Positions 17,986-43,168 of a DNA stretch of 56,534 nucleotides are shown here, piece by piece; position 1 is the first letter of the stretch, and each line of letters opens with the position of its first letter. The notes beneath the pieces are model-generated. The model did not search any database. It was not told the DNA's origin and worked only from the letters and a program-made list of their open reading frames with translations. A program made the translations under genes and the position numbers. The stretch lies in the NCBI GenBank assembly GCA_020847715.1, contig JADLBM010000012.1:1-56534 (forward strand), given 5' to 3'. The stretch is from Candidatus Yanofskybacteria bacterium (GTDB lineage: Bacteria; Patescibacteriota; Minisyncoccia; 2-02-FULL-40-12; GWA2-44-9).

Positions 17986-20304
17986 TTAGCGCCGGAAGTC
18001 GAACAGATCCTTGTCGTCATGGGCGCCCTTCGCAAGCGCTCCCGCCTCGTGACGACGATACGCATCGGTGCTCGTGTATCCGACATATAACAAGGTAATA
18101 ATCGCGGAAACGATGAGCGCAAGAAGCGTTGACTCGCCGGGACCGGTCGGCACTTGTGTAACAGGAGTCGTCGGGGTTGTGATAATGACCGGAAGCTGTG
18201 CGGTAAGAGTTCCGATACCGTCTGCGCTCGCTTGGGCCGTGTTCAGCACCGTTGTAGTTCCCGCAGGAAGCTGGCTCGCCACCGCAACACGTGCGGAGAG
18301 AAGTACGGTGACCTCTTGGCCGACCGCAAGCGTCCCGAGACTGAGTCCACTACTCGTGAGACTGTCGGGGGCAGGGGAGCCATTCACACGCACCGAACCG
18401 GCCAGTGCGGTCATGCCCTGAGGCACGATATCGCGAAGAATCACATTTGTGAGCGGTGCATTCGAGGTGTTGCGGACTCGAAGAATGAATTCGACGGTCT
18501 CTGCCGGAGAGGCGTAGACCGGCGACGCCTCGCCAGTTTGGCCACGGCTCGTGTTCCGCCCCATCTTCACGAGTGACATGCTGAGATTCTGGGATGCGTT
18601 CACGACATTCACGAAAGCAACGTCGTTCACCTCAGAAACATTTGAACCGCGCGCGTATCCGGTGTTCGTCATGACGGTCGATCCCTGCGAGAAGAATCCT
18701 GCGGCCGCAACGGACGCGCGGAATCGAATGGTCACGGTCCTTCCAGATGCGAGATCGCCGAGATTCAGTCCCGATGCAACAATGCCGTCTGCGGCAGGCG
18801 CCCCATCAATGGTCGTCGAACCTGGGATATAGGTGAGCCCAGCGGGCAAACTATCACGAACCGTCGCGGATGTGACGGCGCCAACTCCGACCGAAGAGAC
18901 GCGCAAAGAGAACTCGACCGTGTCCGAGGGGTTTGCGTTAACAGAATCGGTCTCTCCGCTTCCCTGAGTAACATTCCGCACAAGTTTCTGAAGTGTCAGC
19001 GCGGGAGCAACAGGCGTTGGCGTCGCGCTCGCGGTAGGAGTTGGTGTTAGCGTAACGCTCGCGGTCGGCGTCGGGGTAGTCGAAGGTGTTGGGGTTGGCG
19101 CAGGATTCACCACGACGGTGCATGCGGCCATATTGCCGCCACTCGCGACAACAACCACTTTCGTTCCTGGCGTTGCGAATGTTACTGCGTAGGATGCTCC
19201 GGTCGCGCTGGATGACACGCCTCCGATTGTGTACCACGCATACATTCCAGTCCCACCGGAAGCAGTGGCGTGCGCCACCGCACCGGTCACCACCATTTGC
19301 GTCGTCGGAGAACAGACGACTGGCGGCAACACGCTTCCCGTGGGCGTAGGCGTCGGAGTTGCACTCGTCGTCGGGGTCGGTGTTATTGTGACGGTCGGCG
19401 TAGGAGTCGGAGATGGAGGAGTGCTTCGTGTCGGAGCAGGGGAGGTTGTTGGGGCAACGCAGTTTGTGCCGTAATCGATAACTGCACCGAGCGCAAGCCC
19501 GCCACCAGAATCGCGGCACTCACCGGTCGCTTCATTCTTGAAGCAACCATCGATCTGAACGCGTCCGCACGTATAGCGATTCGCGTTGTAAGTGACGGTA
19601 ACCTGATGATGGGACCCGGGAGCAAAGCTCGCGTTCGTCTTCCCGATATTCACCGCAGTCCCTGCTGTCGCAGAGCACCCTTTCGTATCGTTGTGGAAAC
19701 CATTCGCAACAACGGTGTAGGTATCGGTGCTTCGATTGTACACGTCCCACGTCTGAGACATGTCGCCGTTCGCGGGTCCCTGGCACGCCTCTGTTGTAAG
19801 ATTCCCGCCTACAACTTTCCAGCAGATGCCTCCGCCCCAGTCATTGTAGCCAGCAGGACACCCAACCGTCGTCGGGAGGCAGTCGTCATTTGAGGCGCAC
19901 TGATCATCCCCAGGGCCATTAATAATGACACAGGCATTATTGGCATTGCATTCGCTGTGCTGCTCAAGAACAGTCGTCGTCGGAGTTGGCGATGGAGCAC
20001 ACCCGCCGCCAACGCACGGATCGCCATCATTACAGTCTTCGCCGCCGACGTCAGGATTCAGAAATCCATCATCGTCACAATCGTGGTCCGGAAGACAGGT
20101 CCACTGTTCTGGAGGAAGAGGACAGGAGGTGCACCCCGGATCACCGACGGTGCATGCGAAGAAGCGGTTTACATCTAGCGTAAAACCAGCCCTCCACCAG
20201 AGATAACCGAACGTAGAGAGAACGATCAACCCCGCAACAAGGAAAAAGAGGCGGTTCGCCTTAAGGAATCCACCGAATCGTACAAAAAATCCTTGAGAAT
20301 CCAT
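17986..20304 (-). CDS. Surface protein D: N-terminal anchor motif, Cys/Asp-rich region, PT linkers, Cys-bounded module, three DUF11-like repeats, VPTGPGE sorting signal
   Basis: Start placed at ATG 20304, 2 nt after the upstream stop; the ORF track extends it to 20328. Motifs AGFTLDVNRFFAC and the C-terminus VPTGPGE + TM + YTST..YRRHE...DFRR. Confidence 0.8.
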   Translation of the reverse strand: MDSQGFFVRFGGFLKANRLFFLVAGLIVLSTFGYLWWRAGFTLDVNRFFACTVGDPGCTSCPLPPEQWTCLPDHDCDDDGFLNPDVGGEDCNDGDPCVGGGCAPSPTPTTTVLEQHSECNANNACVIINGPGDDQCASNDDCLPTTVGCPAGYNDWGGGICWKVVGGNLTTEACQGPANGDMSQTWDVYNRSTDTYTVVANGFHNDTKGCSATAGTAVNIGKTNASFAPGSHHQVTVTYNANRYTCGRVQIDGCFKNEATGECRDSGGGLALGAVIDYGTNCVAPTTSPAPTRSTPPSPTPTPTVTITPTPTTSATPTPTPTGSVLPPVVCSPTTQMVVTGAVAHATASGGTGMYAWYTIGGVSSSATGASYAVTFATPGTKVVVVASGGNMAACTVVVNPAPTPTPSTTPTPTASVTLTPTPTASATPTPVAPALTLQKLVRNVTQGSGETDSVNANPSDTVEFSLRVSSVGVGAVTSATVRDSLPAGLTYIPGSTTIDGAPAADGIVASGLNLGDLASGRTVTIRFRASVAAAGFFSQGSTVMTNTGYARGSNVSEVNDVAFVNVVNASQNLSMSLVKMGRNTSRGQTGEASPVYASPAETVEFILRVRNTSNAPLTNVILRDIVPQGMTALAGSVRVNGSPAPDSLTSSGLSLGTLAVGQEVTVLLSARVAVASQLPAGTTTVLNTAQASADGIGTLTAQLPVIITTPTTPVTQVPTGPGESTLLALIVSAIITLLYVGYTSTDAYRRHEAGALAKGAHDDKDLFDFRR

Positions 20305-20306
20305 TC

Positions 20307-20801
20307 TTATTGAACAATAACCGTACACACTGCGATATCTTTGGCGGTAGAACCGTCATTTCTCCCGCTCTGCACAAGAACCTTCTTGGTTCCAGTGGTG
20401 GTATAGCGAACCGCGAACTGCGCCCCCTGTCGGTTTGTGTCGGGTGCAGATGACTCCGGACCAAGCCACGTATAGATGCCGTCTCCTCCAGCCACGGTGA
20501 GGTTCGCAAGAACACCCACGGCGACTGTCTGGGTCGCGGGGGAGCAAGAAGCAACAGCTCGATTTGTTCCCGTGGGCGGACACCATCCTCCAGCGGGCTC
20601 TGCGATGTCGCACGGAGGAGTCGCGTCAAGACATGCCGGGCGCGTCTGGCATGCCGTCGTTGTTACAACATCAGCGGCAGGCTCTGCGGCAAAGAATTTC
20701 ATGAACTCAAGACTAAATCCCGAGTACCACCAGATGCTAATGGCGCCGACAACAAGCATCAGGACTCCTCCCAGAAGCATCTTTCGAACGGTGGCATTCA
20801 T
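20307..20801 (-). CDS. Small paralogue C: N-terminal anchor motif plus one Cys-bounded Ig-like module, no sorting signal
   Basis: MNATVRKMLLGGVLMLVVGAISIWWYSGFSLEFMKFFAAE, then the module CSPATQTV...AVCTVIV. 164 aa. Confidence 0.7.
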   Translation of the reverse strand: MNATVRKMLLGGVLMLVVGAISIWWYSGFSLEFMKFFAAEPAADVVTTTACQTRPACLDATPPCDIAEPAGGWCPPTGTNRAVASCSPATQTVAVGVLANLTVAGGDGIYTWLGPESSAPDTNRQGAQFAVRYTTTGTKKVLVQSGRNDGSTAKDIAVCTVIVQ

Positions 20802-20873
20802 ATACGCACGTGCAATCTCAGTTGATTATAGTACACCGCTTGAACACTTCACAGGGACATATCCACATTTTCT

Positions 20874-22571
20874 CTACGCGCGGAAGTCGAGTGGGCCCTG
20901 GTCCTCACTCGCTTTTGTCGCCTCGCGGCGACGATACAGCGGTGAGCGCGTGTATGCCGTGTAGAGCAGGGTGAGCGTCGCTGCAAACATAAGCGCCGCA
21001 ATAACCGCATCTCCGGGCCCTGTCTGCACGCCTCCCGCGCCGCCAACGACGCCTCCACCCGTGCCAGCTCCTCCCTGAGTTGAACCGTACACCGTGACGC
21101 TCGTATCGCCGATAACATCCGCCAGCTGTTGGGCGGTCGCCACGGCGCGCGGTCGGAACATCTGCGGCCCACTGGGAAGCAGGGAAGTCTGATCTGCAAG
21201 AGCAGACCATCGCACCGTGACGACATCTCCGGCCTCAAGGCGACCTAAGAATAGGCCCGAAGTGGTAATGGTATCGATGAGAACCGGCTGACCCTCGACG
21301 GTCGTCGAGCCCTGTCGGTATGACATGCCAGATGGGATCTCATCGCGAACCAGAAGGCCGCTCGTGGGTCCACCTCCACTGTTCGTGATTCGAATGACAA
21401 ATTCCACGATCTGCCCCGGATTCACAGTGACTGCGGTCCGCTCGCTCGGATCTCCCACCGAAAGATTCCGCGCATACTTCGCCACCGTAAGCGCGGCGCT
21501 ACCCGTTTGCGTCGTGTCGTCCGTCACTGTCACTGAGCATCGAGCACTCTGCGCTCCACTGCTGACTCGAACGTTTTTGACGCCGGTAGTCGCATATGTA
21601 ATCGACACGAATTCATTCCCACCTTCTTCAAGGAGTCCACCGCCCGTGATATCCCATTGGTATACGCCCGTACCGCCACTTGCCTGTAGAAGCGCTCTTC
21701 CGGAACGCTGCACAGTCTGCGTTGTAGGCGAACAAACGAGCGGAGGCGGGGGAGGGGTCGGAGCAGTTGAGATAGTTGTGCCGATAGGAGTCGTTGACGC
21801 GCCGCCGCACAACACAGTGTTCGAAACAATGCTAGGACTAAACTTCACGCGATACTGGTAGGTTCGTCCGGCCGCAGCCGAGACATCGGTGTACGTCCCA
21901 ATACCAAAGGTATTCCAGCATCCGCCCTCACTGAAAACATCGGTCCAGCTCCCTCCGTTGATATCCATGCGCTGAATAACGTTTTGCATCGCGCGACCCG
22001 ACAACGGGTTCGTCCAAGTCAGAACATTGACGGAACCACACTGGACCGCCAGCGCGGGCGTTGACGGAGTTCCCGCATATGCGGGGCATGAATCGCCGCC
22101 TCCACCCGCGCCGCCGCCATCACACCCAGACCCACCGGCACGCGGATCGCATACTCGGATACAGAAATCGTCTCCGAATGCTGTCCAGTTCTTCGGACAA
22201 TCTTGCGGCTTCTCAACGCACATCTTCGGATACCGCTCCCACACAACACCGCTGTCAGGCTCGGGCCTGCGGTCTGTCATGTACAGGAACTCTCCCGTAC
22301 CCGTTGTCCCCCTATATGTCGGTAGGCACCCTTCATCGAGCGCATAGTCGTACTCCGGCTCTCGATTGCACACGAAATCCGGCACCCAGCTTGGCGGCTG
22401 GCTTGCGCGTCCGGGACATCGCTCTTCAGCAGCGAAGAACCTCCCGATCTCCAACTGAAAACTTCCGTAGACACCCCATATCACAAGCACCATCGCCAGG
22501 ACGGCAGCAGTAACCACAATCCACGCCTGTGGACTTTCACGGAAGAGCCGGCGAATGACTTCCCAATCCAT
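20874..22571 (-). CDS. Surface protein B: N-terminal anchor motif, Cys-rich and FN3-like regions, Cys-bounded module, DUF11 repeat, VQTGPGD sorting signal
   Basis: GSFQLEIGRFFAAE, PPPPP linker, CSPTTQTV...ARCSVTV module. C-terminus VQTGPGD + TM + YTRS..YRRRE...LDFRA. Confidence 0.8.
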   Translation of the reverse strand: MDWEVIRRLFRESPQAWIVVTAAVLAMVLVIWGVYGSFQLEIGRFFAAEERCPGRASQPPSWVPDFVCNREPEYDYALDEGCLPTYRGTTGTGEFLYMTDRRPEPDSGVVWERYPKMCVEKPQDCPKNWTAFGDDFCIRVCDPRAGGSGCDGGGAGGGGDSCPAYAGTPSTPALAVQCGSVNVLTWTNPLSGRAMQNVIQRMDINGGSWTDVFSEGGCWNTFGIGTYTDVSAAAGRTYQYRVKFSPSIVSNTVLCGGASTTPIGTTISTAPTPPPPPLVCSPTTQTVQRSGRALLQASGGTGVYQWDITGGGLLEEGGNEFVSITYATTGVKNVRVSSGAQSARCSVTVTDDTTQTGSAALTVAKYARNLSVGDPSERTAVTVNPGQIVEFVIRITNSGGGPTSGLLVRDEIPSGMSYRQGSTTVEGQPVLIDTITTSGLFLGRLEAGDVVTVRWSALADQTSLLPSGPQMFRPRAVATAQQLADVIGDTSVTVYGSTQGGAGTGGGVVGGAGGVQTGPGDAVIAALMFAATLTLLYTAYTRSPLYRRREATKASEDQGPLDFRA

Positions 22572-22620
22572 AGCAATAGTATATCAGCTTCCGCGCCCAC
22601 AGAGCACGGAGCCCTGTGTG

Positions 22621-23277
22621 TTACATCTGCACTTGCACCGCCTGGACGGCAATGCGCTTGTAATTTGTACCGACCGGATAGCAACTGATAAGCACAAGGC
22701 TACTGCCCAAAGCGTTCTCCATTTCGCTCAGACGGCTATCCTCTGAGAAAGGATTAAAAATGATTGCCTGCTTCATCTCATATACAAATGAACGATTATC
22801 CTCATACTGCACATAGAATCGATCTCCGGGTTTCAGGCGACTCAAGAGCGCGAACACCGCTCCATACTCTCCCTTATACCAAGGGTACGCTGAGCTGTGC
22901 CCAAGAATGACCGCCGCGCCGGGGTTTCCGGGTTTCGCGGTATCACTGTAGTGCACGACGCCATCTTCCAGACGCTTGTAGATGGCGTCGTTGTTGTTTG
23001 GCGCATTGAAAACGATAGGCGCGCGAACACCGATGCTGTCGATGACCAGCGTTGCCCGATCGGGTAGCGGTTTTGCCTGCACGGCACCCGCGAGCGGGAG
23101 GAGGCGAATGGCATCTCCAAGCGTGTCTCGAGTTCGGATTGTTCCGGGAGCTACAAGATACTGTGCGCTCTTTGCGACAAAACGAATATTCAGCAGCAGG
23201 AACGCCGCAGTGAATGTTACGGCGAAGATAAACACGAGCCGGAGCCAGATGGTTCGGTTCCGATTGTGAAGTCGCAT
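22621..23277 (-). CDS. Sortase family transpeptidase (218 aa)
   Basis: Start at ATG 23277 (MRLHNRN...) with an N-terminal TM. Catalytic His in AAVILGHSS, Cys in LVLISCYP, downstream Arg (NYKRIAV). Embedded among its presumed substrates. Confidence 0.85.
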   Translation of the reverse strand: MRLHNRNRTIWLRLVFIFAVTFTAAFLLLNIRFVAKSAQYLVAPGTIRTRDTLGDAIRLLPLAGAVQAKPLPDRATLVIDSIGVRAPIVFNAPNNNDAIYKRLEDGVVHYSDTAKPGNPGAAVILGHSSAYPWYKGEYGAVFALLSRLKPGDRFYVQYEDNRSFVYEMKQAIIFNPFSEDSRLSEMENALGSSLVLISCYPVGTNYKRIAVQAVQVQM

Positions 23278-23342
23278 GTCACCAGTATACCAAACAACAA
23301 CATCCCCGGTATGGGGATGTTGTTGTTTTCGGACACTCAGAC

Positions 23343-25049
23343 CTACTTGAGGAAGTTGAGTCCGGCAGACCGCGAGAGTCGTCCGACCTCCGCGAGTGCC
23401 GCGCGGCGACCGAAGGCCAGTGAGCGCGTGTACACGGCGTAGCCACCCGTCACCAATGCGGCGATGAGCAAGGCAAGCCACAGAGAGTCCGCGGGACCCG
23501 TCTGGACGCCTGATGCGTTCGTAATGCTCACATGCTGTCCGAGAGTAATCGGAAGCTGAGCAGACATCGTGCCAACCGTATCTGCTCGGACCTGCGCAGT
23601 CGCGTTGACTACCACCTGGCCCCACGAGGGGACGGATGCTTCGTCGACGCGAACCGACAGCTTAATTACCGTATCAGTAGAAGGCGAGAGCGTACCGACA
23701 GAGATACCAGCGCTCGTGATGCCGTCCGAAACCGCATACCCATTCAGTGTTGTCGAGCCTGCAATGTAGTTCACGCCGCTCGGGAGAAGCTCCGTCACGA
23801 ACGCGTTGTACAATGACGAGCCATTCATTGAGCGAACACGAAGGATGAGGTCGAGCGTGTCTCCGCCACGGGCGCGAACGCTTGCGTTCTCACCACTCTG
23901 CCCGCGCGAGACGTTGCGTCCGGTCTGGCGCAGATCGAGTCGTGCATTCGGATCGGTGTACGGGTACGCCGTCGGCGTCGGGGTCCACGCGCTACCATTC
24001 AGGACGAGCGTGGTAGTTCGAGCCTGCATATTCGCGTTCTCTGCAGTCACGGTCACTGAGTTGTAGAGCGACTGCCAGTTCGTGTATGCGGCATCAACAG
24101 TCGCATCGAACTTCACGATATAAGTGCGGTTCGCGGTCAGCGTACCGAGGCTCAGACCGCCGTTTGTGATGCCGTCGGTGTACCACGTTCCGTCGATATT
24201 CGTAGTTCCAGACAGGTAGCGAACGAACGAGGGGAGTGCGTCCGTGATGCGAACGTTGGTGAGCTGATAGGCACCGGTCGTGATGCGCGCAATGAACTGC
24301 ACGCGATCGCTCCCGTAGACATTCACCGAAGAACCCTCTCCTCCGCGCGTAACATTCCGGACGGTGTGGTCAACCGCAAGTGAGCCATACGGATACGCGG
24401 TCGGCGTCGGAGTCCAGTAGGTGGAGCCGTACACATTCACCGCGCACGAAGCCGACTGACCGGCGCTCGTGACCGTGACCGTACGATTCACCGTTGTGGA
24501 GCCATAGTTGTAGAAACGAGTCGAGAAGACGGAACCCCAACCGGACGACGGGTTGCCGTCAGTCGTGGTCCAGTAGTAGGAACCGTTACCACCCCATGCA
24601 TTCAGAGAGACCACATCACCCGAGGTGACACTCGAGTACGACGGTGCGCACTGCAGGGTCGTCCATGGGGTCGGCGTCGGGGTCCAGGTGTACGTCGGCG
24701 TAGCGCCATACACATACACCGTGCACGCGGCGGTCTGGTAACCGTCAGAAACGGTTACCGTGCGCGTCTCCGAACCGGTCACATAGAACCGGGTACCAAA
24801 TGTCGCACCATACCCATAACTCGGATTTCCACCAACCGCAGACCATGTCAGCTGGTTCGTAGTGTTCGAGGAATAGGCAGTAAAGCTCACGAAATCTCCG
24901 CTCGAAACGGACTGAACGGACGGCGCACACTGCAGGGAACCGTACCACTGCGTGGACTGCGCCTGGGCATCAACGACACCAAAGGCGCCACCGACCGAGG
25001 ACGCCAGAAGGGCCGTGAAAAGCCCGAAAATCAAGGCTTTCTTGGACAT
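23343..25049 (-). CDS. Surface protein A: classical signal peptide, two Cys-bounded modules, two DUF11-like repeats, VQTGPAD sorting signal
   Basis: Signal peptide MSKKALIFGLFTALLASSVGGAFGVVDAQA. Two LQCAPS...C.V.VYG modules. C-terminus VQTGPAD + TM + YTRS..FGRR...LNFLK. Confidence 0.8.
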   Translation of the reverse strand: MSKKALIFGLFTALLASSVGGAFGVVDAQAQSTQWYGSLQCAPSVQSVSSGDFVSFTAYSSNTTNQLTWSAVGGNPSYGYGATFGTRFYVTGSETRTVTVSDGYQTAACTVYVYGATPTYTWTPTPTPWTTLQCAPSYSSVTSGDVVSLNAWGGNGSYYWTTTDGNPSSGWGSVFSTRFYNYGSTTVNRTVTVTSAGQSASCAVNVYGSTYWTPTPTAYPYGSLAVDHTVRNVTRGGEGSSVNVYGSDRVQFIARITTGAYQLTNVRITDALPSFVRYLSGTTNIDGTWYTDGITNGGLSLGTLTANRTYIVKFDATVDAAYTNWQSLYNSVTVTAENANMQARTTTLVLNGSAWTPTPTAYPYTDPNARLDLRQTGRNVSRGQSGENASVRARGGDTLDLILRVRSMNGSSLYNAFVTELLPSGVNYIAGSTTLNGYAVSDGITSAGISVGTLSPSTDTVIKLSVRVDEASVPSWGQVVVNATAQVRADTVGTMSAQLPITLGQHVSITNASGVQTGPADSLWLALLIAALVTGGYAVYTRSLAFGRRAALAEVGRLSRSAGLNFLK

Positions 25050-25104
25050 ATGGGTGAATATAATGATTACGTAGTACCAATCCCTACTGGGATCGTGTTG
25101 ATAT

Positions 25105-25134
25105 ATTATACCATTCTAAATGGCAGAAAGTCAA
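25105..25134 (-). promoter_or_regulatory. Sigma70-like promoter of the surface-protein/sortase operon
   Basis: On the minus strand: TTGACT (25129-25134), 18-nt spacer ending TGg, TATAAT (25105-25110). Confidence 0.55.
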
Positions 25135-25177
25135 GACCCCCGAAAAACTGCTCCCGCGGCGGAATAAGGCCATATTA

Positions 25178-25206
25178 TTGAAAAAAATGCAATGTTCGGG
25201 TATACT
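25178..25206 (+). promoter_or_regulatory. Sigma70-like promoter of the tRNA-Arg locus
   Basis: TTGAAA (25178-25183), 17-nt spacer, TATACT (25201-25206). Divergent from the operon promoter. Confidence 0.55.
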
Positions 25207-25221
25207 GTCCGAGCATTGTTC

Positions 25222-25297
25222 GCTCTCGTCGTTCAAAGCCGACGCAAGAGGTCGGCTCTCCGACCCCAGCGAAGCTGGGCGTCGGAGTGGATAGGAC
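25222..25297 (+). other. Partial 5' copy of tRNA-Arg (nt 1-25) with a 51-nt structured insertion in the D-loop
   Basis: 25222-25236 equals tRNA 25334-25348, and 25288-25297 equals tRNA 25349-25358. The insert contains the hairpins GCCGAC/GTCGGC and CTCCGAC-CCCAGC GAA GCTGGG-c-GTCGGAG. Confidence 0.6.
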
Positions 25298-25333
25298 ATA
25301 CAATGCAAAGGGGAGTGGATATTCGGTGAATTT

Positions 25334-25405
25334 GCTCTCGTCGTTCAATGGATAGGACGCAAGCTTGCGGAGCTTGTAATGTAGGTTCGATTCCTACCGA
25401 GAGCA
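25334..25405 (+). tRNA. tRNA-Arg (anticodon GCG by manual fold), no encoded CCA
   Basis: Cloverleaf: acceptor GCTCTCG/CGAGAGC, D stem GTTC/GGAC, anticodon stem CAAGC/GCTTG with loop TTGCGGA, T arm GTAGG-TTCGATT-CCTAC. Confidence 0.8.
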
Positions 25406-25443
25406 CAAAAACAAATGGCCCCCTTGCGGGGCCTTTTGTTTTT
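25406..25443 (+). terminator. Rho-independent (bidirectional-looking) terminator
   Basis: GGCCCC/GGGGCC stem extended by an AAAAACAAA/TTTGTTTTT A/T-rich tract. Confidence 0.7.
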
Positions 25444-25452
25444 CATGCTTGA

Positions 25453-25614
25453 GGTAGGAATCGAACGGGGAGAAGCGGAGCGAGGCCCGGCCAAGTATGG
25501 GCGGGCCGATGTGAGCGCCAGTCGCATATCCGGTGGATATGCGACTGCTCCCCAGTACAACGAAGGCTCACCGCGACGGCGGGGAGCTGAGGCGAAATTC
25601 CTACCGAGAGTGCA
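25453..25614 (+). ncRNA. tRNA-Arg-linked satellite element (structured, about 162 nt)
   Basis: It starts with GGTAGGAATCGAAC, the reverse complement of tRNA 25385-25398. Near its 3' end, 25597-25610 (ATTCCTACCGAGAG) is a direct copy of tRNA 25390-25403. The ends pair (9 bp). Inside is a perfect 11-bp hairpin at 25520-25546. Transcription is unproven. Confidence 0.5.
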
Positions 25615-25630
25615 GGGTGATTCCTACCCT

Positions 25631-26206
25631 CTACGGCCTCCGAATGAAGACATCGAGAAGGGGGGTCGGATGCTCGCTTTCCACTATATACTGTGACAAC
25701 ACTGCGCGGATTTCCTGAGGGTCCTGCTCTCCCAGCGGAAGACGTAGTGTCGGGATGTGCCATCGCCGCGTCTGGAGGCTGAGCTCAACGGTATCGTCCG
25801 GCATTCGATGGATATCGAACGAGGCGAGATCGGCGTGAGCAATGCGTCGTCCATCAATCTCGACGCCGCGGCCGTCCACAGCTACGCTCACCGGCCTGCT
25901 GAGTCGCTCTCGAATCTCCCATGTTGCGGCGCCCAAAAGCGTGACGATCATGACTGCCACACTCGACTGCCACCACGCGACCGCACCCCCGATGAACACG
26001 AGCGTCGCCATGAGCATGTAGTGGCGCTGCCATGCACGCCCCTGAAGGGGATGGTGCGCTTCCCATGCAATTGCCTGTGCAGCGAATTCGTTGAATGACG
26101 GGGGTACAGCATCCGCGGAAACCACTTCCGGCGTCATCACATCCGCAGTTGTAGATTCGTCGACACTAACAGGTTCCGGATTCTTGAGGTCAAGCACGTT
26201 GCTCAT
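25631..26206 (-). CDS. Hypothetical two-TM membrane protein (191 aa)
   Basis: Acidic N-terminus, a TM pair (MLMATLVFIGGAVAWW / VAVMIVTLLGAATW), and a soluble C-terminal domain. No motif recognised. Confidence 0.55.
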   Translation of the reverse strand: MSNVLDLKNPEPVSVDESTTADVMTPEVVSADAVPPSFNEFAAQAIAWEAHHPLQGRAWQRHYMLMATLVFIGGAVAWWQSSVAVMIVTLLGAATWEIRERLSRPVSVAVDGRGVEIDGRRIAHADLASFDIHRMPDDTVELSLQTRRWHIPTLRLPLGEQDPQEIRAVLSQYIVESEHPTPLLDVFIRRP

Positions 26207-26243
26207 GCGGGTAGTATACCATCATTTTTCTACGCCCCAGCTC

Positions 26244-26495
26244 CTACCGATGAGGGCAGCCGGCCCAGCAGCACGGTCGCCGCATGCCTTTGCGCATCTT
26301 ATCGAGACCGACTGCAATGCGCCGCTCACGTGTTTTCGATTGCTTCGCGGAAGTCACCCAGCAGATCCATTCGTTGCGAGCCAGCGGAGTGATATCTGCC
26401 CACACGCTCCGAGCTTTCGAATCCGATTCGATCGCTGCGCGGAGGTCCGGCGGCGCCCTATGTACTGCGCCGTTTTTTGTATTCGTCTTTTTCAT
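26244..26495 (-). CDS. YdeI/OmpD-associated family protein (83 aa)
   Basis: Start at ATG 26495 (MKKTNTK...). The pattern PPDLRAAI....VWADITPLARNEWICWVTSAKQSKTRERRI is typical of the YdeI-type domain. Confidence 0.65.
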   Translation of the reverse strand: MKKTNTKNGAVHRAPPDLRAAIESDSKARSVWADITPLARNEWICWVTSAKQSKTRERRIAVGLDKMRKGMRRPCCWAGCPHR

Positions 26496-26511
26496 AAAGA
26501 ATGCGCGCTCT

Positions 26512-26635
26512 TGGCGGTGGGAGTAGGATTCACCCGCCACTCTCGGCGCGTCCGTCGGCGCGCCTCGGTTCTGGGCTCCAGCCCTCGCGGTCGCCCCTTC
26601 TGGCGCGACAGCGCTCCGGGCTTCGAATCCTACGC
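26512..26635 (-). ncRNA. tRNA-Ser(UGA)-linked satellite element (about 124 nt)
   Basis: Its 5' end GTAGGATTCGAA is an inverted copy of the T-arm. Its 3' end is a 20-nt direct copy of the tRNA 3' end including CCA (26512-26531 equals 26685-26704). It shares a 33-nt core with 27002-27035. Confidence 0.55.
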
Positions 26636-26647
26636 TCCAGCTATAGT

Positions 26648-26683
26648 ATCACCCCAGACTGCCACATGGCAGTCTGGGGTGAT
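26648..26683 (-). terminator. 17-bp perfect inverted repeat immediately 3' of tRNA-Ser(UGA)
   Basis: ATCACCCCAGACTGCCA-CA-TGGCAGTCTGGGGTGAT. No clear U-tract, so it may be a processing or termination hairpin. Confidence 0.4.
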
Positions 26684-26684
26684 A

Positions 26685-26774
26685 TGGCGGTGGGAGTAGG
26701 ATTCGAACCTACGGTACGGTTTCCCGTACAGCGGTTTTCAAGACCGCCGCTTTAGACCACTCAGCCATCCCACC
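26685..26774 (-). tRNA. tRNA-Ser (anticodon UGA), type II with long variable arm, CCA encoded
   Basis: Acceptor GGTGGGA/TCCCACC, anticodon stem GCGGT/ACCGC with loop CTTGAAA, T arm GTAGG-TTCGAAT-CCTAC, ends GCCA. Confidence 0.85.
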
Positions 26775-26797
26775 CAATGCGCCAGTGTATCGTGAAA

Positions 26798-26826
26798 TTG
26801 CCAATAACTCAAGAAAATGCTATATT
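26798..26826 (+). promoter_or_regulatory. Sigma70-like promoter for tRNA-Ser(CGA)
   Basis: TTGCCA (26798-26803), 17-nt spacer ending TGc, TATATT (26821-26826). A divergent TTGAGT-17-TACACT can be read on the other strand for tRNA-Ser(UGA). Confidence 0.5.
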
Positions 26827-26843
26827 ATTCCCGCTCCACTCCC

Positions 26844-26930
26844 GGAAGCGTGGCTGAGTGGTTGAAGGCACCACACTCGAAATGTGGCATAGGGGTAACC
26901 CTATCGGAGGTTCGAATCCTCCCGCTTCCG
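26844..26930 (+). tRNA. tRNA-Ser (anticodon CGA), type II, CCA not encoded (ends GCAA)
   Basis: Acceptor GGAAGCG/CGCTTCC, anticodon stem CCACA/TGTGG with loop CTCGAAA, long variable arm, T arm GGAGG-TTCGAAT-CCTCC. Confidence 0.85.
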
Positions 26931-26934
26931 CAAT

Positions 26935-26970
26935 ACCAAAACGGATTGCCGTGTGGTAACCCGTTTTGGT
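26935..26970 (+). terminator. 10-bp hairpin 3' of tRNA-Ser(CGA)
   Basis: ACCAAAACGG / CCGTTTTGGT with a 16-nt loop. The U-tract lies inside the stem only. Confidence 0.4.
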
Positions 26971-26984
26971 GCCGTCGTCGAAAA

Positions 26985-27104
26985 GGGAGGATTCGAAGGA
27001 CGGAGCGATGTCGCGCCAGAAGGGGCGACCGCGAGTCCGTGGTCAGCCCGAGGGTTGTCGACGGACAACCCAAGAGGCGAGACCGAATCCTCCCGCTTCC
27101 GCCA
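26985..27104 (+). ncRNA. tRNA-Ser(CGA)-linked satellite element (120 nt)
   Basis: GGGAGGATTCGAA (26985-26997) is the reverse complement of tRNA 26911-26923. 27084-27102 is a 19-nt direct copy of tRNA 26913-26931, and the element continues 2 nt further to end GCCA (27104). There is an 11-bp closing stem plus two internal hairpins. Confidence 0.55.
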
Positions 27105-27125
27105 GGATTCAGAAAGAGAGGAATC

Positions 27126-27317
27126 GTGACAACGCTACTGCTGGACGACTTGGACGACGACACGCGCCGGCGACTCACCGAGCGCAAGCGGTACTCGTGT
27201 GCACACTGCCAGTACCGGTGGGAGATTCCCGCGCTCCAGAGCTCGACCGAGTGCCCGTCATGCGGCGGCCACTGGATCGTCTTCGACACCGCGCCGGATA
27301 GCCAGCGGGACCCGTGA
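27126..27317 (+). CDS. Small zinc-ribbon protein (63 aa, GTG start)
   Basis: AGAGAGGA SD then GTG. Acidic N-terminus, then CAHC...(16 aa)...CPSC. The stop codon sits in the terminator loop. Confidence 0.5.
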   Translation: MTTLLLDDLDDDTRRRLTERKRYSCAHCQYRWEIPALQSSTECPSCGGHWIVFDTAPDSQRDP

Positions 27318-28388: not shown

Positions 28389-29825
28389 ATGCTGGAAATC
28401 CATCCGAAGGTAGGGGAGGTCCTACGGACACTCGAGGAGAACGGCCACCGCGCATATGCGGTGGGTGGCTGCGTGCGCGACATCATGATGGAGCGACATC
28501 CAACCGATTGGGATGTCACCACCGACGCTCGCCCCGAGCGCATCCAAGAGCTGTTCCCCGATAACTTTTACGACAACGCATTTGGAACTGTCACCGTGAA
28601 GACGCGCGACGACGACCCCATCGTGCGCACCATTCAGATTACCCCGTTCCGCATCGAAGGACGGTACACCGACCAGCGGCACCCCGACGAGGTCACATTC
28701 GCGAAAACAATCGAAGAAGACCTCTCGCGCCGTGACTTCACCGTGAACGCAATGGCGATGAGTGCTGACGGGACACTGGTTGACCCCTACGGCGGACGAG
28801 ACGACCTCTCCGCAAAAATAATCCGCGCGGTCGGGGATGCCGATACTCGCATCACGGAAGATGCGCTCCGCATGATGCGCGCGGTTCGATTCGCGACCAC
28901 GCTCGATTTCAGCATTCACGACGACACTCTGCGGGCGCTCACGCGCCACGCCGCACTGCTCGAGCGCATCTCGGCAGAGCGCATTCGCGATGAACTCACA
29001 AAGATCCTGAATGCTCCGCGCGCAATGCATGGCATCCAACTCCTCGAAGATACCGGCCTCCTCCGGTTCATCCTTCCGGAGTTGCGCGAGGGCGTAGGAG
29101 TCGAGCAGAACCTCCACCACATCTACACGGTGTGGGAGCATAATTTGCGCACCATGCACTACGCTGCGCAGAAGGGATATTCATTCCCCGTGCGAATGGC
29201 GTGCCTCCTCCATGATGTGGGGAAGCCGCGCACCAAGCGGGGAGAGGGCCGCCACTGCACGTTCTACGCACACGATGCCGTGGGTGCCACGATGGCTCGA
29301 AAGATCATGGAGCGCCTCAAATACCCCGGCGAGACCGTCGATGCGGTCGTGCGCTTGGTTCGTTACCATATGTTCTACTACAGTGTTGGCGAAGTCACCG
29401 AGTCCTCGGTTCGCCGCCTCATCGCGAACGTCGGGCTCGAACACATTGACGACCTCCTCAGGCTCCGCGAGGGAGATCGCATCGGCTCCGGAACGCCCAA
29501 GGCGGTACCCTATAAACTCCGCCACCTCAAGTACATGATCGACAAGGTCAGCCATGACCCCATTTCAGTAAAGATGCTCAAGGTGAACGGGCAGGATATT
29601 ATGGAAGTCCTCGGAATTCCGCCCGGGCCGAAGATTGGCCTCATCCTCAACACGCTCCTCGCCGAGGCACTCGACGATCCGACCATCAACACCCGCGAGC
29701 TCCTCTTAAAGCGAGCGGGAGAGCTTGATGCGGCATCCGCTGCCGACCTCAAAAGCGCGCTTGAACGCATCGAACAGGCTCGGGATTCGGAAGAGAAGGA
29801 GCGGATGAAGAAATACTACGTGTAA
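28389..29825 (+). CDS. cca: CCA-adding enzyme (tRNA nucleotidyltransferase with HD domain)
   Basis: The GGCVRD motif (AVGGCVRDIMM), RRDFTVNAMA, and HD region LLHDVGKP. 478 aa. Confidence 0.9.
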   Translation: MLEIHPKVGEVLRTLEENGHRAYAVGGCVRDIMMERHPTDWDVTTDARPERIQELFPDNFYDNAFGTVTVKTRDDDPIVRTIQITPFRIEGRYTDQRHPDEVTFAKTIEEDLSRRDFTVNAMAMSADGTLVDPYGGRDDLSAKIIRAVGDADTRITEDALRMMRAVRFATTLDFSIHDDTLRALTRHAALLERISAERIRDELTKILNAPRAMHGIQLLEDTGLLRFILPELREGVGVEQNLHHIYTVWEHNLRTMHYAAQKGYSFPVRMACLLHDVGKPRTKRGEGRHCTFYAHDAVGATMARKIMERLKYPGETVDAVVRLVRYHMFYYSVGEVTESSVRRLIANVGLEHIDDLLRLREGDRIGSGTPKAVPYKLRHLKYMIDKVSHDPISVKMLKVNGQDIMEVLGIPPGPKIGLILNTLLAEALDDPTINTRELLLKRAGELDAASAADLKSALERIEQARDSEEKERMKKYYV

Positions 29826-29859: not shown

Positions 29860-29979
29860 GTCGGGCTGCTGGGAATCCCGTACGCGTCAAACCTCGCCGT
29901 CGCTCGGTTCGCGCTTCCGGCCGGGGCTCGCGGCGCCTCCTACTGTCGACGTATCGCTCCGCCCTTCGCTTCCCGGCAG
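29860..29979 (-). ncRNA. tRNA-Pro-linked satellite element (120 nt, more degenerate)
   Basis: 18-nt direct copy of the tRNA-Pro 3' part (29860-29877 equals 30031-30048). Degenerate inverted T-arm CTGCCGGGAAGCGAA. Shares the core ...CGAAG-GGGC-GGAGCGAT...CGCGAG-CCC with the Ser elements. Confidence 0.45.
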
Positions 29980-29993
29980 GCAATCTGCGCGCA

Positions 29994-30024: not shown

Positions 30025-30031
30025 TTATGGG

Positions 30032-30102
30032 TCGGGCTGCTGGGAATCGAACCCAGTCTTTATGAACCCGAATCATACGTACTACCGGTATACTACAGCC
30101 CG
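30032..30102 (-). tRNA. tRNA-Pro (anticodon CGG), no CCA
   Basis: C1:G72 acceptor CGGGCTG/CAGCCCG with A73, anticodon stem TATGA/TCATA with loop TTCGGGT, T arm CTGGG-TTCGATT-CCCAG. Confidence 0.8.
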
Positions 30103-35042: not shown

Positions 35043-35960
35043 ATGAGCGGGAGACTCAAATTCCTTCTCGCTGTTTTGGCCGTGGGTGCCGGCTCGCTCT
35101 TTTGGTACTTCGCAAGCTACGGACCAACATCCTCGAGTAGCACCTTCTCAGCGTCTCTATACGAAAAAACAACCGCAACACTCCAGGATACCGACAATGA
35201 CGGCCTCGGTGACCGTGAAGAAACCTATTGGGGAACAGATTTTAAGACCGCCGACACCGACGGAGACGGCTTCACCGACGGGGAAGAGGTGCTGAGCGGG
35301 CACAACCCGGCGAAGAAGGGGCCCGACGACCTCTTGAACGAGCGCCGAAACCTCACCGAGCGCACCAGCACCCTTTTGTTGGGCGGATTAGTCGCGGGCG
35401 ACCTCGATCCTGAGAGTCCAAAGTACGAGGCGTCCATCACCGCGCTGGTCGACCAGATCTTCGATCAGTACACCACAAACACTTCCGTCGAGCTTGATTC
35501 GCTCGCAACGACCGACGACTCGACCGACGCCCTCATTCGCTATGGCCTCGCGATGAGTCGCGCGCTTCCGGAGTTATTCTCGGACACCGCGAAGGGATTT
35601 GTAGCGACGCTCGGCGTTGTCGGGAACACCCCCATCGACTCGCTCTCGAAACTTCAGAAAGAAGAACCGGAAACCTACCGCGCATTCGCAGCTTCCATTG
35701 ATGGCCAAATCGCGATGCTCGAGAAGCACGCAACTACTTTGAAAGGAATCCGCGTTCCTCCCTCTCTGCGCACAGCCCACCAGAATGCGCTCCTATTCGC
35801 GCGAGGCGCTCAGCAGCAGTACCGCGCAGTACGCGACATCAGCCGCGACCCGCTCCAGGGTATTATTGCACTGCAAGTCCTCGAATCACTCGCCACCGAC
35901 ACTTCAGCGCAAATCAGCGCCGACTTCTCGAGTCGGCTCGCAAAAGCATTCCAGCAATGA
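35043..35960 (+). CDS. Membrane-anchored protein with two thrombospondin-type-3-like DxDxDG calcium-binding motifs
   Basis: N-terminal TM, then DTDNDGLGD and DTDGDGFTDGEE, followed by a helical domain. First gene of the T4SS-like cluster. Confidence 0.6.
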   Translation: MSGRLKFLLAVLAVGAGSLFWYFASYGPTSSSSTFSASLYEKTTATLQDTDNDGLGDREETYWGTDFKTADTDGDGFTDGEEVLSGHNPAKKGPDDLLNERRNLTERTSTLLLGGLVAGDLDPESPKYEASITALVDQIFDQYTTNTSVELDSLATTDDSTDALIRYGLAMSRALPELFSDTAKGFVATLGVVGNTPIDSLSKLQKEEPETYRAFAASIDGQIAMLEKHATTLKGIRVPPSLRTAHQNALLFARGAQQQYRAVRDISRDPLQGIIALQVLESLATDTSAQISADFSSRLAKAFQQ

Positions 35961-37621
35961 CTATTCGCGCATCATCCATCCAATTCGCTCTCGTCGCCAC
36001 AGCGATGTTCGCCCTCGCCCTCGTGGCACGGCCGACACTTGCTGCATTCGATACGACCCAGCTCTCTCCCGGCCAACCGATTGGAGGAGAGACCAGCACC
36101 ACACTCTCGGATATCATCAAAAATCGCGGCCTCACGAGCGCTACATATAAGCAAATCTGTGTTACCGGAAATATTTTCACCCTCTTCAAAGGAAGTCTCG
36201 ACGAGATCGGGAAGCGCCTTCTGAGTCAGATCGGCGGCATCATTACCGACCTCTTCAATATCGTCAAAAAGAAGCTTATCGCCTGCGCAGTGTCGGGCAT
36301 CATCAATAAGTACACGGGAGCGGGATTTCAGTGCACCATGCCGGTCGCATCCGATTTCACCGCGTACATAAAACTCAAGGCTGAACAAGAAGCGAAGCAA
36401 AACTTTATTGCCCGATGCGTGGTGGACCAGCAGATCAACGACATCACAAACACCGTCGACCGGATGATCCAGGAGCAGGGGCCGGAAGGCGGCCCCGCAT
36501 GGGCAACCGACTGGATTACCAACTCCTATGTGAATCCCGACCGTCAGGCATACCGTCGATTCTGGACGCTTCTTGTGAACACCGATGTGTGCGAGTACAT
36601 GCGCACCGATGTGTACAACTATTTCGAAGTTCCTCAGTCGTACCGCGACAACCCGCCGTCCATCAAAGCATACGAGCTCAGTGTCGACGCTGATACGCCA
36701 TTCCCGTTGAAAGCCGCCTGCACCGCAAAAGGATGGACTCCTGGTAAAATAACGGACGCGAAAACCTTCGCCCAGTCCGGCGGGTTTGATCTCCTTGGGC
36801 GCCTCGCGGAACCGCAGAACAACTTCAATGGATTTATCCGCCTCGCAAAAGATGAACTCGCGAAACAGCGAGCGGTGCTGGTGAATTCGGTCACGAACCA
36901 GCTCATCAGCGGGGGAGGCGTGCTTCCCATCTACGGCACAAAGGAGGAGAGCTGCAAAGTTGATGCGGACGGCAACTGCATCACGAACGGTCGCATCCGG
37001 CAGGCTCCCGGCGTCGCTCGCGACCTCATCAACTCTTCTTACGATGCGCAGCTTACATTCCTGAATAACACCAACGGGACCACCGCCAAAGCGATGGAGG
37101 ACATCTCCGCGCGCATCCGTGCACGCATGATCGACATGGCAAACCAACCACTCCCCATCAAGCTCGAGCTTGGCCTCGAGGACGAGCCGGACAATGTCGT
37201 TACCCCAACACCAACCCCCAGCGTATCGCCCGGAACATATCCGCCCGACGATCCGTCGTGCACGGGAGGGAACCCGCAATGCACCTGTGTAAGGAGCGAG
37301 CCAAACGCAATGGCACTGGTTGGCTCTGTCGTCCGGAGCGCCGTCGAGCAGGTCATGCAGACGAGCACGGCATTGTTCGACCCTCCCGGCAGTAATCGCA
37401 TCGCCCCCGGCGTGAACTACCGCACCGTTCTGCAGGCGGTCTGCGACCGCATGCAGCCGCCGCAGGGCATCATCTGTAAGCCACACCCCGGGCAAGATGA
37501 TGAGATTGTCCTCGTCACTCAGACCATGAGCATCTCCGTGGATGTTATTACCGGTGACGGAGGGCTGCGCTCGAATGGCGGCAACGCGGTAGCCGCCTGC
37601 GAGCTTGGCGTTCAAGACTAA
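35957..37621 (+). CDS. Large secreted Cys-containing hypothetical protein (554 aa)
   Basis: Signal peptide ...ALALVARPTLAA, PT linker, 4-nt overlap with the upstream gene. The GC3 pattern favours this strand over the 547-aa antisense ORF. Confidence 0.6.
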   Translation: MTIRASSIQFALVATAMFALALVARPTLAAFDTTQLSPGQPIGGETSTTLSDIIKNRGLTSATYKQICVTGNIFTLFKGSLDEIGKRLLSQIGGIITDLFNIVKKKLIACAVSGIINKYTGAGFQCTMPVASDFTAYIKLKAEQEAKQNFIARCVVDQQINDITNTVDRMIQEQGPEGGPAWATDWITNSYVNPDRQAYRRFWTLLVNTDVCEYMRTDVYNYFEVPQSYRDNPPSIKAYELSVDADTPFPLKAACTAKGWTPGKITDAKTFAQSGGFDLLGRLAEPQNNFNGFIRLAKDELAKQRAVLVNSVTNQLISGGGVLPIYGTKEESCKVDADGNCITNGRIRQAPGVARDLINSSYDAQLTFLNNTNGTTAKAMEDISARIRARMIDMANQPLPIKLELGLEDEPDNVVTPTPTPSVSPGTYPPDDPSCTGGNPQCTCVRSEPNAMALVGSVVRSAVEQVMQTSTALFDPPGSNRIAPGVNYRTVLQAVCDRMQPPQGIICKPHPGQDDEIVLVTQTMSISVDVITGDGGLRSNGGNAVAACELGVQD

Positions 37622-37623
37622 CC

Positions 37624-39960: not shown

Positions 39961-39984
39961 AGCACACTGTAACGTCCCGCCACT

Positions 39985-40479
39985 ATGACCGCACTAAACG
40001 AGACTGAGGATTTTCTCTACAGCCCCTACATAGCTGCAATCGCCGATAAAGACGACGCCCAGCTTCGTGCATTCGCAGAAAAATTTGCTGCGCAAAACGA
40101 ATCTGATCGCACATTCTTAACGTCACCCGAAACTGCGTTGGCGATCAAGCGCCTCGTTGAAGAGGGAGTTATTCCAGAAGAGTACGCCATTGCGACAGCA
40201 AAGATCGTTGCTTTTGTTGTTCTTCGCGAAGTCCCGTTATCCTCCGTGCCGCAGCTTCTCGAGCGCATTGGACTAGCCTCCCCACAAGCGCAAAATGCCG
40301 CAACGGCAATCACGCAACTCCTCCAACCACTCATCGCCGCACGAGCCGCGGCCGAAACACCGGAGCAGCTCCCCGAACTTCCGCCGATGACAACGAAGAT
40401 TCCGCCCGCCCCACAGCAGCATTCGTCGAACACGCCACCGCGTAATATAATAGACCTACGCAACAAACCGGCCGCATGA
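39985..40479 (+). CDS. Hypothetical soluble protein (164 aa)
   Basis: ORF in the cluster, 4-nt overlap with the next gene, no motif recognised. Confidence 0.5.
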   Translation: MTALNETEDFLYSPYIAAIADKDDAQLRAFAEKFAAQNESDRTFLTSPETALAIKRLVEEGVIPEEYAIATAKIVAFVVLREVPLSSVPQLLERIGLASPQAQNAATAITQLLQPLIAARAAAETPEQLPELPPMTTKIPPAPQQHSSNTPPRNIIDLRNKPAA

Positions 40480-40787
40480 AGTTTCAGGTTCCACAATTCA
40501 TTGAAACGGAAACGAAGCTTATCGGACCGCTCACGCTCCGGCAGTTTCTATTCGTCGCCGGTGGCGTCAGTATGACCGCAATGGCATACATCCTCCTCAA
40601 CGGCGTGTTCTTCGCCATCGCCGCACTTCTTATTCTTGGATTCTTCGGCGCGCTCGCCTTCGCTCGCATCGACGGACAACCATTCTTCAACTACCTCGCC
40701 TACATGCTGGCATACACGCTCGGTGCAAAACGCTACATCTATCGAACCGGAAGCACGCAGAACCAATTCACACCACCTCATGCCTGA
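40476..40787 (+). CDS. PrgI/VirB3-like small two-TM protein
   Basis: MKFQVPQFIETETKLIGPLTLRQFLFVAGG... followed by two TMs. This N-terminal pattern is typical of the PrgI family of Gram-positive-type T4SS. Confidence 0.65.
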   Translation: MKFQVPQFIETETKLIGPLTLRQFLFVAGGVSMTAMAYILLNGVFFAIAALLILGFFGALAFARIDGQPFFNYLAYMLAYTLGAKRYIYRTGSTQNQFTPPHA

Positions 40788-41421: not shown

Positions 41422-41424
41422 TCC

Positions 41425-43167: not shown

Positions 43168-43168
43168 C

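Follow-up and report, generated by a model that had tools for sequence, protein, structure and literature searches.

Islands that integrate into tRNA genes restore the gene that they split and leave a displaced fragment of it behind (PMC4383910; Islander database). Something akin to this situation is seen in the chromosome of Candidatus Yanofskybacteria bacterium, a member of the Patescibacteria or candidate phyla radiation (CPR), where, within a stretch of 56,534 nucleotides (contig JADLBM010000012.1; hereafter the window, that is, the whole of the DNA that was analysed), an intact tRNA-Arg(GCG) gene lies between partial copies of itself that carry structured insertions. The likeness to tRNA islands and prophages, with their tyrosine integrases and their attL and attR ends, extends to a regenerated tRNA, to foreign DNA and to a displaced 3'-end copy with its start in the T-loop, and further to native sequence past the distal copy (at the tRNA-Pro gene of the window), to patchy presence in relatives and to repeated use of the same site. 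A class of tRNA integration with its sublocation in the T-loop was reportedly distinguished by Williams in 2002. By contrast with islands, the elements considered here are about 100-170 nt long, have no integrase nor any open reading frame (ORF) and keep a conserved folded structure resembling that of an RNA; they carry an arm antisense to the T-arm of their cognate tRNA, near-identical cores sit at different tRNAs of one genome, and there is a mirror-image version that affects the D-loop at the 5' end of the gene. We read them as miniature insertion elements targeted to tRNA loops, which would restore the gene end that they displace, and we give this reading a probability of roughly one half. 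In this reading the Arg locus combines a decayed 3' copy with a lineage-specific event at the 5' end. The confidences expressed here and below do not sum to one, and the readings partly overlap.

Several families of bacterial repeats invite comparison. Miniature inverted-repeat transposable elements (MITEs), Correia elements, repetitive extragenic palindromes and bacterial interspersed mosaic elements (REP/BIME) and the Rickettsia palindromic elements are short, ORF-less, multi-copy and hairpin-forming; they can supply promoters or terminators, and those of Rickettsia can sit within genes without destroying them. The elements discussed here share with them their short size, the absence of ORFs, the hairpins and the presence of several near-identical copies per genome. 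Repeats of the MITE type, however, have fixed terminal inverted repeats and generate short target duplications of fixed length, whereas here the arms are tailored anew for each tRNA and the repeat, of 14-22 nt, is set by landmarks of the tRNA, from T-loop to discriminator. To our knowledge, MITE-type repeats do not target tRNA ends.

The arrangement is borne by four of the seven tRNAs of the window (Arg-GCG, Ser-TGA, Ser-CGA and Pro-CGG). In each case the tRNA is followed by a hairpin, an arm antisense to the T-loop and the 3' strand of the T-stem of that tRNA, a core of some 100 nt and a direct copy, 14-20 nt long, of its own 3' end. The kinship of the Arg 3' element with those linked to Ser and Pro had been noticed in a first-pass annotation, made from the sequence alone, and family alignments bear it out. 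They define a family, fam1, of ORF-less elements of about 100-125 nt, located directly 3' of tRNA genes in many CPR genomes. Its hosts are tRNAs for Arg, Ser, Ala, Pro, Lys, Glu and Ile in a set of 160 loci from related CPR genomes, which are coded L001, L002 and so on. Members display a closing helix, P1, in which the antisense 5' arm (antiT) pairs with the copy of the tRNA 3' end, then an arm A (GGAGCGAUG..CCGCGAG) and an arm B (CCGAG-hairpin-CGAGAG). Matches to a covariance model of the family (R1) number 27, all but one of them directly 3' of a tRNA and on the same strand. Three canonical members are found in the window: behind tRNA-Ser(TGA) (26512-26641, reverse strand, 99.5 bits, with a 20-nt copy of the tRNA 3' end), behind tRNA-Ser(CGA) (26978-27102, forward strand, 125.4 bits, with a 19-nt copy and then a CCA, which the gene lacks) and behind tRNA-Pro(CGG) (29860-29986, reverse strand, 92.2 bits, with an 18-nt copy followed by the native flank and a terminator).

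Pairing is strongly conserved in fam1. RNAalifold, applied to ten copies, returns P1 and two composite arms, with compensatory changes in 24 of 34 pairs. In an alignment of 20 sequences, 90.8% of the pair cells are paired, as against 62.6% in shuffles and 37-45% when partners are slid, and 31 of the 34 pairs display double changes. G-U pairs outnumber A-C pairs by 30 to 10, hence it is the tRNA-sense strand that folds. At the Arg locus itself, folding compared with shuffles gives z = -7.6 for the 3' element and z = -3.6 for the 5' leader; since three other tRNAs of the window and dozens of related loci show this architecture as well, these features are not the product of chance. Nothing in Rfam 15, group I introns, self-cleaving ribozymes, T-box, tmRNA and Y RNA included, matches other than the tRNAs, with no credible hit up to E = 10 either in positions 25100-27200 or at the L001 locus of a second family (fam2, see below), and a full-text search of the literature found no published description of these elements, so that fam1 is apparently undescribed. 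A subgroup (L014, L031, L039, L047, L062, L084, L139, L152) has a conserved leader hairpin, GCAAAC-UNN-UUUGC, devoid of a T-run, between the tRNA and the 5' arm; in that subgroup the hairpin is part of the element, not a terminator.

The 5' arm is fitted to the tRNA that it follows. When the comparison is anchored on the reverse-complemented T-loop and bears on the 12 nt upstream of it (an unanchored test, too noisy, was replaced by this one), the arm pairs with the T-stem and acceptor 3' strand of its cognate tRNA at 7.7 of the 12 positions versus 6.3 for non-cognate tRNAs (permutation p < 0.0002). The T-stem part pairs strongly, with 100 Watson-Crick and 9 G-U pairs of 120, and the acceptor part modestly. 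The arm even mirrors the T-loop variant of its own tRNA, with TTCGATT answered by AATCGAA, TTCGACT by AGTCGAA and TTCAATT by AATTGAA, exactly so in 19 of 29 cases. Behind the tRNA-Arg(GCG) of L082, where the element is canonical, pairing reaches 11 of 12 positions. The idea that the arm is a copy of the acceptor 5' strand, left by an internal deletion that created a minihelix, was rejected, as the L082 arm differs from that strand and pairs via wobbles.

The direct repeats, of 14-22 nt, usually match the tRNA perfectly over 17-22 nt; they start at T-loop position 56-57 in fam1 and 60 in fam2, and end at the discriminator plus 0-3 nt. More generally, pieces lying upstream of an intact gene always start at tRNA nucleotide 1 and those lying downstream always end at the tRNA 3' end. 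A CCA follows the distal copy in about 8 of 28 elements (window 27084-27105; L026, L025, L062, L066, L004, L039), compared with 3 of 32 genes and a background of 23%. A retro-origin from mature tRNA was considered in this connection and set aside: the excess of CCA has p = 0.08, and the status of the distal copy as the native end of the gene explains it equally well.

Comparison with orthologous genes speaks for insertion. The seven tRNAs of the window are syntenic in its nearest relatives, L001-L005. On the 3' side of tRNA-Arg(GCG) there is a probable decayed fam1 copy in the window, a canonical fam1 in L082, a fam2 element in L001, and nothing in L002-L005 and L081. Because orthologous tRNA-Arg genes thus carry a canonical fam1 element, a member of another family or no element at all, their sequences argue for gain and loss. 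The core of fam2 (GGGGUCGGGA-hairpin-UCCCGU..GGA..AAACCG) is unrelated to that of fam1, within the same outer layout, and it too shows covariation; its loci are L001:7742-7905, L044:7180-7307, L052:327-454, L053:11568-11713 and L034:11590-11729. At the tRNA-Pro gene of the window, the sequence past the distal copy has its orthologue in the native flank of the Pro locus of L004, which is free of element. Similarity of flanks beyond the tRNA end is significant for this Pro element only, and long target duplications, as in target-primed reverse transcription, were rejected on that ground. Sites are reused, as witnessed by tandem units in L031, by a nested cargo of 770 nt in L039 and by additional decayed copies in the window (25620-25628) and in L053. 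Near-identical cores recur within a genome (three copies in L004, two in L133, the Ser pair of the window, which holds three canonical copies and a probable decayed one), and contigs break inside elements in L082 and L084.

Much of this could be seen from the side of the host. The elements might be cis-acting trailer RNAs with a cellular function rather than selfish DNA, P1 and the two arms, by base-pairing with the T-arm and 3' strand of the tRNA or by imitating them, controlling folding of the tRNA, processing of its 3' end, CCA addition or turnover, or else acting as a decoy; the Arg copy would then be losing its function. Trailers of this sort have precedents in the 3' external transcribed spacer of E. 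coli leuZ (3'ETS-leuZ), which acts as a sponge, and in the t-elements of plant mitochondria, which are non-coding tRNA-trailer RNAs or processing signals, and the present elements would likewise form a non-coding trailer RNA that tRNA-processing enzymes could release. They differ in that they hold antisense and sense copies of the upstream tRNA 3' end and are gained and lost like insertions; we know of no such property in 3'ETS or t-element RNAs. A host function would fit the strong covariation maintained among genomes that share only about 55-75% identity in their CCA-adding enzymes, the G-U pairs in the tRNA sense, which point to a fold at the RNA level, the persistence of cognate-specific complementarity, and the conserved leader hairpin of the subgroup mentioned above, which is not a terminator there. 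It would also fit the minimum free energy fold predicted for the read-through transcript, in which the T-arm of the tRNA itself is engaged by the 5' arm and the body of the tRNA uses the distal copy. Against it, the elements are dispensable: only about 5% of the tRNAs in the 160 loci carry one, and in close relatives the corresponding tRNA has none. One and the same tRNA is followed by either of two unrelated core families, depending on the genome, strong terminators separate tRNA and element in three of the four cases of the window, and decayed copies exist, namely the Arg copy of the window and one at a tRNA-Glu in L133. On balance we regard a trailer RNA serving the host as a doubtful explanation, albeit one to be taken seriously.

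Let us now turn to the Arg locus. Direct reading of the sequence finds every feature that the first-pass annotation had listed there, and both the sequence and the predicted folds support its description of the flanks of the tRNA as partial self-copies with structured insertions. The intact tRNA-Arg(GCG) gene (25334-25406, forward strand, as are all features of the locus; ARAGORN; Rfam tRNA score 63.8 bits) does not encode its CCA. It is followed by a bidirectional intrinsic terminator hairpin (25407-25443, stem 25417-25433, with T-runs on both strands), then by the element: a 5' arm, antiT (25447-25466), a degenerate fam1 core (25467-25596), a 14-nt direct copy, ATTCCTACCGAGAG, of the tRNA 3' end from A58 to G71 (25597-25610), and a canonical fam1 tail (25604-25628) that matches the tail of the Ser(TGA) element at 88% and comprises CCGAGAG-TGCAGGGTG and a boundary copy, ATTCCTACC (25620-25628). 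The arm holds GGTAGGAATCGAAC (25453-25466), the exact reverse complement of the tRNA T-loop, T-stem 3' strand and C66, which is predicted to close the element by pairing, as helix P1, with the ATTCCTACC copies further downstream. Both 3' copies that had been reported are present. Their roles had to be revised: the family alignment identifies the supposed third copy, at 25620-25628, as the true boundary copy of the family, while the 14-nt copy consists of ATTCCTA fused to the family-conserved CCGAGAG, which coincides with the acceptor 3' strand of tRNA-Arg. This acceptor 3' copy differs from the tRNA at positions 72-73.

Alignment to canonical members indicates what the Arg element has kept and what it has lost. 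Its position, the 5' arm with P1, stem P3, the motif CCGCGAC (25571-25577) and the CCGAGAG-N9-copy tail are all in place. The motif CGGAGCGA..TG is kept, interrupted by a 26-nt hairpin (about 25484-25509), and a 41-nt insert (about 25522-25562), comprising a perfect hairpin (25520-25546), occupies the loop of stem P3; the element thus has two extra hairpins compared with canonical fam1, and arm B is largely lost. Its R1 score, 11.8 bits (E = 0.0075 in 1 kb), compares with 92-125 bits for the other three copies of the window. From the alignment of motifs, this low score and the canonical fam1 of L082, we therefore treat the Arg copy as a probable decayed and rearranged member of the family. Two mutually exclusive folds had been proposed for it, in which GGGGAG at 25467-25472 or at 25581-25586 would pair with CTCCCC at 25548-25553; the sequence is absent from canonical members, and this switch is not conserved.

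On the 5' side, a sigma-70-like promoter (TTGAAA-17-TATACT, 25178-25206) precedes a fragment of the gene (25222-25297) made of tRNA nucleotides 1-15 (25222-25236), a D-loop insert of 51 nt (25237-25287), predicted to fold as two hairpins, and nucleotides 16-25 (25288-25297). A spacer of 36 nt (25298-25333) then leads to the intact gene; it holds a TACAAT box and GGGGAGTGGA, a segment predicted to pair with the acceptor strand of the displaced fragment. In L001, L004 and L082, a promoter with hexamers matching that of the window directly abuts the first base of the tRNA, with gaps of 15, 13 and 18 nt, respectively, which identifies the window promoter as native to the tRNA-Arg(GCG) gene. In the window, 15 nt separate the -10 box from the first base of the fragment, the same gap as in L001. 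As native promoter and native spacing are both kept, the fragment is, judged from its sequence, the beginning that the gene originally had, moved 112 nt upstream and still joined to its promoter. No second full promoter was found ahead of the intact tRNA in spacer 25298-25333, so that transcription probably runs through the fragment and makes it a long structured leader.

This 5' event is lineage-specific. Neither the fragment nor its 51-nt insert is present at any of the seven orthologous tRNA-Arg(GCG) loci examined, and the insert has no other copy detectable by BLAST in the window or the 160 loci; its interpretation as a repeated mini-element was dropped accordingly. The comparison of orthologues, chosen beforehand by the first-pass annotation as a test that could refute its proposal, therefore split in two, going against it for the 5' fragment, absent from the seven loci, and in its favour for the 3' element, whose family has strongly conserved pairing. 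Similar cases do exist in other CPR genomes. A recurrent layout, in which tRNA nucleotides 1 to about 13-20 are followed by a hairpin-rich D-loop insert, the 3' strand of the D-stem, a short spacer and an intact tRNA, is found in L066 (tRNA-Arg(TCG), also provided with a 3' fam1 element), L104, L122, L078 and L155. Several of the equivalent spacers, including those of L078 and L104, contain -10-like boxes, mirroring the 3' elements, which bring a terminator. The Arg gene is, as had been remarked, the only tRNA of the window with satellites on both sides; it is not unique in this, as the L066 tRNA-Arg(TCG) also has both.

A more prosaic account, restricted to the Arg locus, is that of debris: deletions and a kind of mutation that inserts GC-rich hairpins would have worn down partial tandem duplications of the tRNA gene, without any family of elements or any function. 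The restriction of the 5' fragment and its insert to this lineage would agree with it, as would a 3' element without arm B and with two perfect, apparently recent hairpins, and the fact that similar hairpins break the loops of displaced tRNA fragments in L016, L066, L104, L122 and L155. Yet the 3' piece aligns to fam1 at both of its ends (the 5' arm with CGGAGCGA..CCGCGAC, and the CCGAGAG-N9-copy tail), and pieces that begin at nucleotide 1 or end at the 3' end without exception are not what random duplication would yield. We find this account improbable. Perfect GC-rich hairpins of the kind just mentioned, located in the loops of displaced or pseudo tRNA pieces, lie at 25237-25287, 25484-25509 and 25520-25546 in the window, and in the five relatives named above; the L155 case, a pseudo-tRNA-Ala, has inserts in both its D-loop and its T-loop.

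Tinkering with pieces of tRNA is well documented elsewhere. In archaea and red algae, split, permuted and multi-intron tRNA genes (Nanoarchaeum, Thermoproteales, Cyanidioschyzon) have their pieces parted by inserts in the D-, T- or anticodon loop, and complementary segments unite them (PMC3241643, PMC9602550). The Arg locus resembles these genes in that extra loop sequence separates pieces of tRNA and in its complementary segments; it differs in belonging to a bacterium, in having a complete, contiguous gene for which no joining is needed, and in outer pieces without an anticodon arm, and no bulge-helix-bulge motif was noticed in it, though no search aimed at one was made. It had been proposed that these outer pieces, the 5' fragment and the 3' element, associate through their acceptor strands as a split, anticodon-less tRNA-like RNA. 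The parts do exist: between them the pieces offer the two acceptor strands, along with a D-stem and a T-stem-like helix, and lack nucleotides 26-57, and the L066 tRNA-Arg(TCG) has the same pair of satellites. When RNAcofold is given the 5' leader together with either the 3' trailer or the 3' element, however, the gain relative to separate folding is only 0.1-2.3 kcal/mol, and no intermolecular acceptor helix forms. Each piece closes on itself instead: in the predicted folds the displaced GCUCUC is sequestered by the spacer segment GGGGAGUGGA, and the 3' strand by an extension of P1. Add to this the two mismatches of the acceptor 3' copy, at positions 72-73, the terminator that lies between the pieces and the absence of the 5' half from all orthologous loci, and assembly of a split tRNA becomes so unlikely that we rejected it.

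Coming back to insertion elements targeted to tRNA loops, the history of the locus could be as follows. The tRNA-Arg(GCG) gene would have been struck at both ends by small ORF-less insertions, each bringing a replacement gene end. The 3' insertion would have taken the position that runs from the T-loop to the 3' end, and at the other side the original 5' start would have been pushed 112 nt upstream, gaining the 51-nt double hairpin in its D-loop. The elements, mobile now or formerly, might enter by recombination across a segment identical to the tRNA, much as integrative islands do, and their fold may be retained for their own propagation or to neutralise the spare 3' end. Transcription of the intact tRNA would start at the upstream promoter, traverse the 5' fragment and stop at the terminator, the 3' element being made only by read-through.

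A number of observations weigh against this scenario. A Pfam scan of the 40 proteins of the window found no integrase, transposase or reverse transcriptase in the elements or elsewhere in these 56 kb. Arms specific to each tRNA call for a mechanism of retargeting. In L004, the hairpin region differs wholly between copies with cores about 97% identical, so that whole units are not simply pasted. The two Ser elements of the window share arm A at 94%, with an arm B that has diverged through compensatory changes, which suggests long residence and gene conversion, not a recent jump. The distal copy is usually identical to the tRNA even beyond the paired region, hinting at a function, a point that counts for a host trailer as well. 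Neither an excised form nor polymorphism at the level of strains was seen. Among the viral contigs of IMG/VR no copy was found, the 74 hits of pattern scans having all been rejected by R1, and a viral origin was dropped for this reason. Large autonomous relatives, sought through distal copies up to 10 kb away, came down to L039 and one false positive.

In L039 (788-1752), a tRNA-Glu is followed by an AT-rich cargo of 770 nt, a decayed copy of the tRNA 3' end, an older fam1 and a distal copy of 26 nt with CCA. The cargo has an ORF of 142 aa without match in Pfam or PHROG, and a gene for a small GIY-YIG nuclease (515-745) lies just upstream of the tRNA. Whole units, each comprising tRNA 3' end, hairpin, antisense arm and mini-core, are in tandem in L031 (9429-9900) and L034 (11486-11790); the L031 repeat holds scaffold Ns, and the second unit of L034 ends exactly at the junction of arm and core.

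Group I introns in bacterial tRNA genes have an internal guide sequence (10.1101/2020.01.27.920355), and there is some likeness in the present elements, where the 5' part of the 5' arm pairs with sequence on the 3' side of the insertion point, while the 3' part, UCGAAC, can pair with GUUCGA on the 5' side of that point. Unlike these introns, they have no Rfam match, no P3-P9 catalytic core and no U-G pair at the putative junction; their core has about 100 nt, they sit in the T-loop instead of the anticodon loop, and the tRNA is intact without splicing. One might conceive of fam1, fam2 and the 5' counterparts as a new kind of mobile element guided by nucleic acids, the 5' arm of a folded RNA or single-stranded DNA serving as a programmable guide: by pairing with the T-stem and T-loop of a tRNA, in the gene or in its transcript, it would direct insertion there. 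Retargeting would take no more than a few mutations in the arm, and the conserved two-armed core would be catalytic or would recruit proteins, for example as a small ribozyme or as a scaffold for a recombinase or reverse transcriptase of the host. We consider this a long shot.

If elements targeted to tRNA loops are what we have before us, then CPR bacteria, with their very small genomes and mostly single-copy tRNA genes, carry tiny protein-less elements that land in tRNA loops and repair the gene that they interrupt, and one has to ask how an element of 100 nt, with an arm complementary to its target, moves without an enzyme of its own. Should the elements be host regulators of tRNA maturation instead, they would represent a new type of cis-acting tRNA trailer. 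On the first of these views they would also contribute a structured RNA family with clear covariation, new to Rfam, and would explain tRNA fragments that can confuse the annotation of tRNAs in metagenome-assembled genomes.

The surroundings of these genes deserve a few words. The window belongs to the core chromosome, with dnaA, dnaN, polA, recG, ruvB, tyrS, yidC and the gene of a penicillin-binding protein. The gene of the CCA-adding enzyme (28389-29825) stands in the middle of the tRNA cluster; its best matches are in Paceibacterota/Yanofskybacteria-like metagenome-assembled genomes, with at most 76% identity, and the genome and metagenome collections searched contained no relative with an enzyme above that value. 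With respect to the closest relatives, L001-L003, where Ser(CGA)-Ser(TGA) and Pro-Ala(CGC) form tight tandem pairs, tRNA-Ser(CGA) and tRNA-Pro(CGG) are inverted in the window (26685-26931 and 30030-30102), and both of these rearranged genes bear fam1 elements. An ORF of 63 aa encoding a zinc-ribbon protein, with a good Shine-Dalgarno sequence, is found at 27126-27317 on the forward strand; as it starts 24 nt past the Ser(CGA) element, the latter lies in its 5' leader. Genes for a sortase and DUF11 surface proteins lie at 17986-25049, and a VirB4/TraG-like ATPase (41425-43167), encoded within a block of genes mostly without Pfam domains (35043-45384), hints at a pilus-like or type IV secretion system.

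Finally, some related genomes harbour nested tRNA genes, in which an intact tRNA sits inside the anticodon-loop region of a split outer copy of the same tRNA, with the 5' half upstream and the 3' half downstream. As examples we may cite L072 (5740-5990), L033 (tRNA-Pro, 3547-3618), L044 (9565-9636), L016 (2769-2840) and L028 (13723-13795). The inner tRNA is flanked there by a complementary leader and trailer of 11-13 bp.

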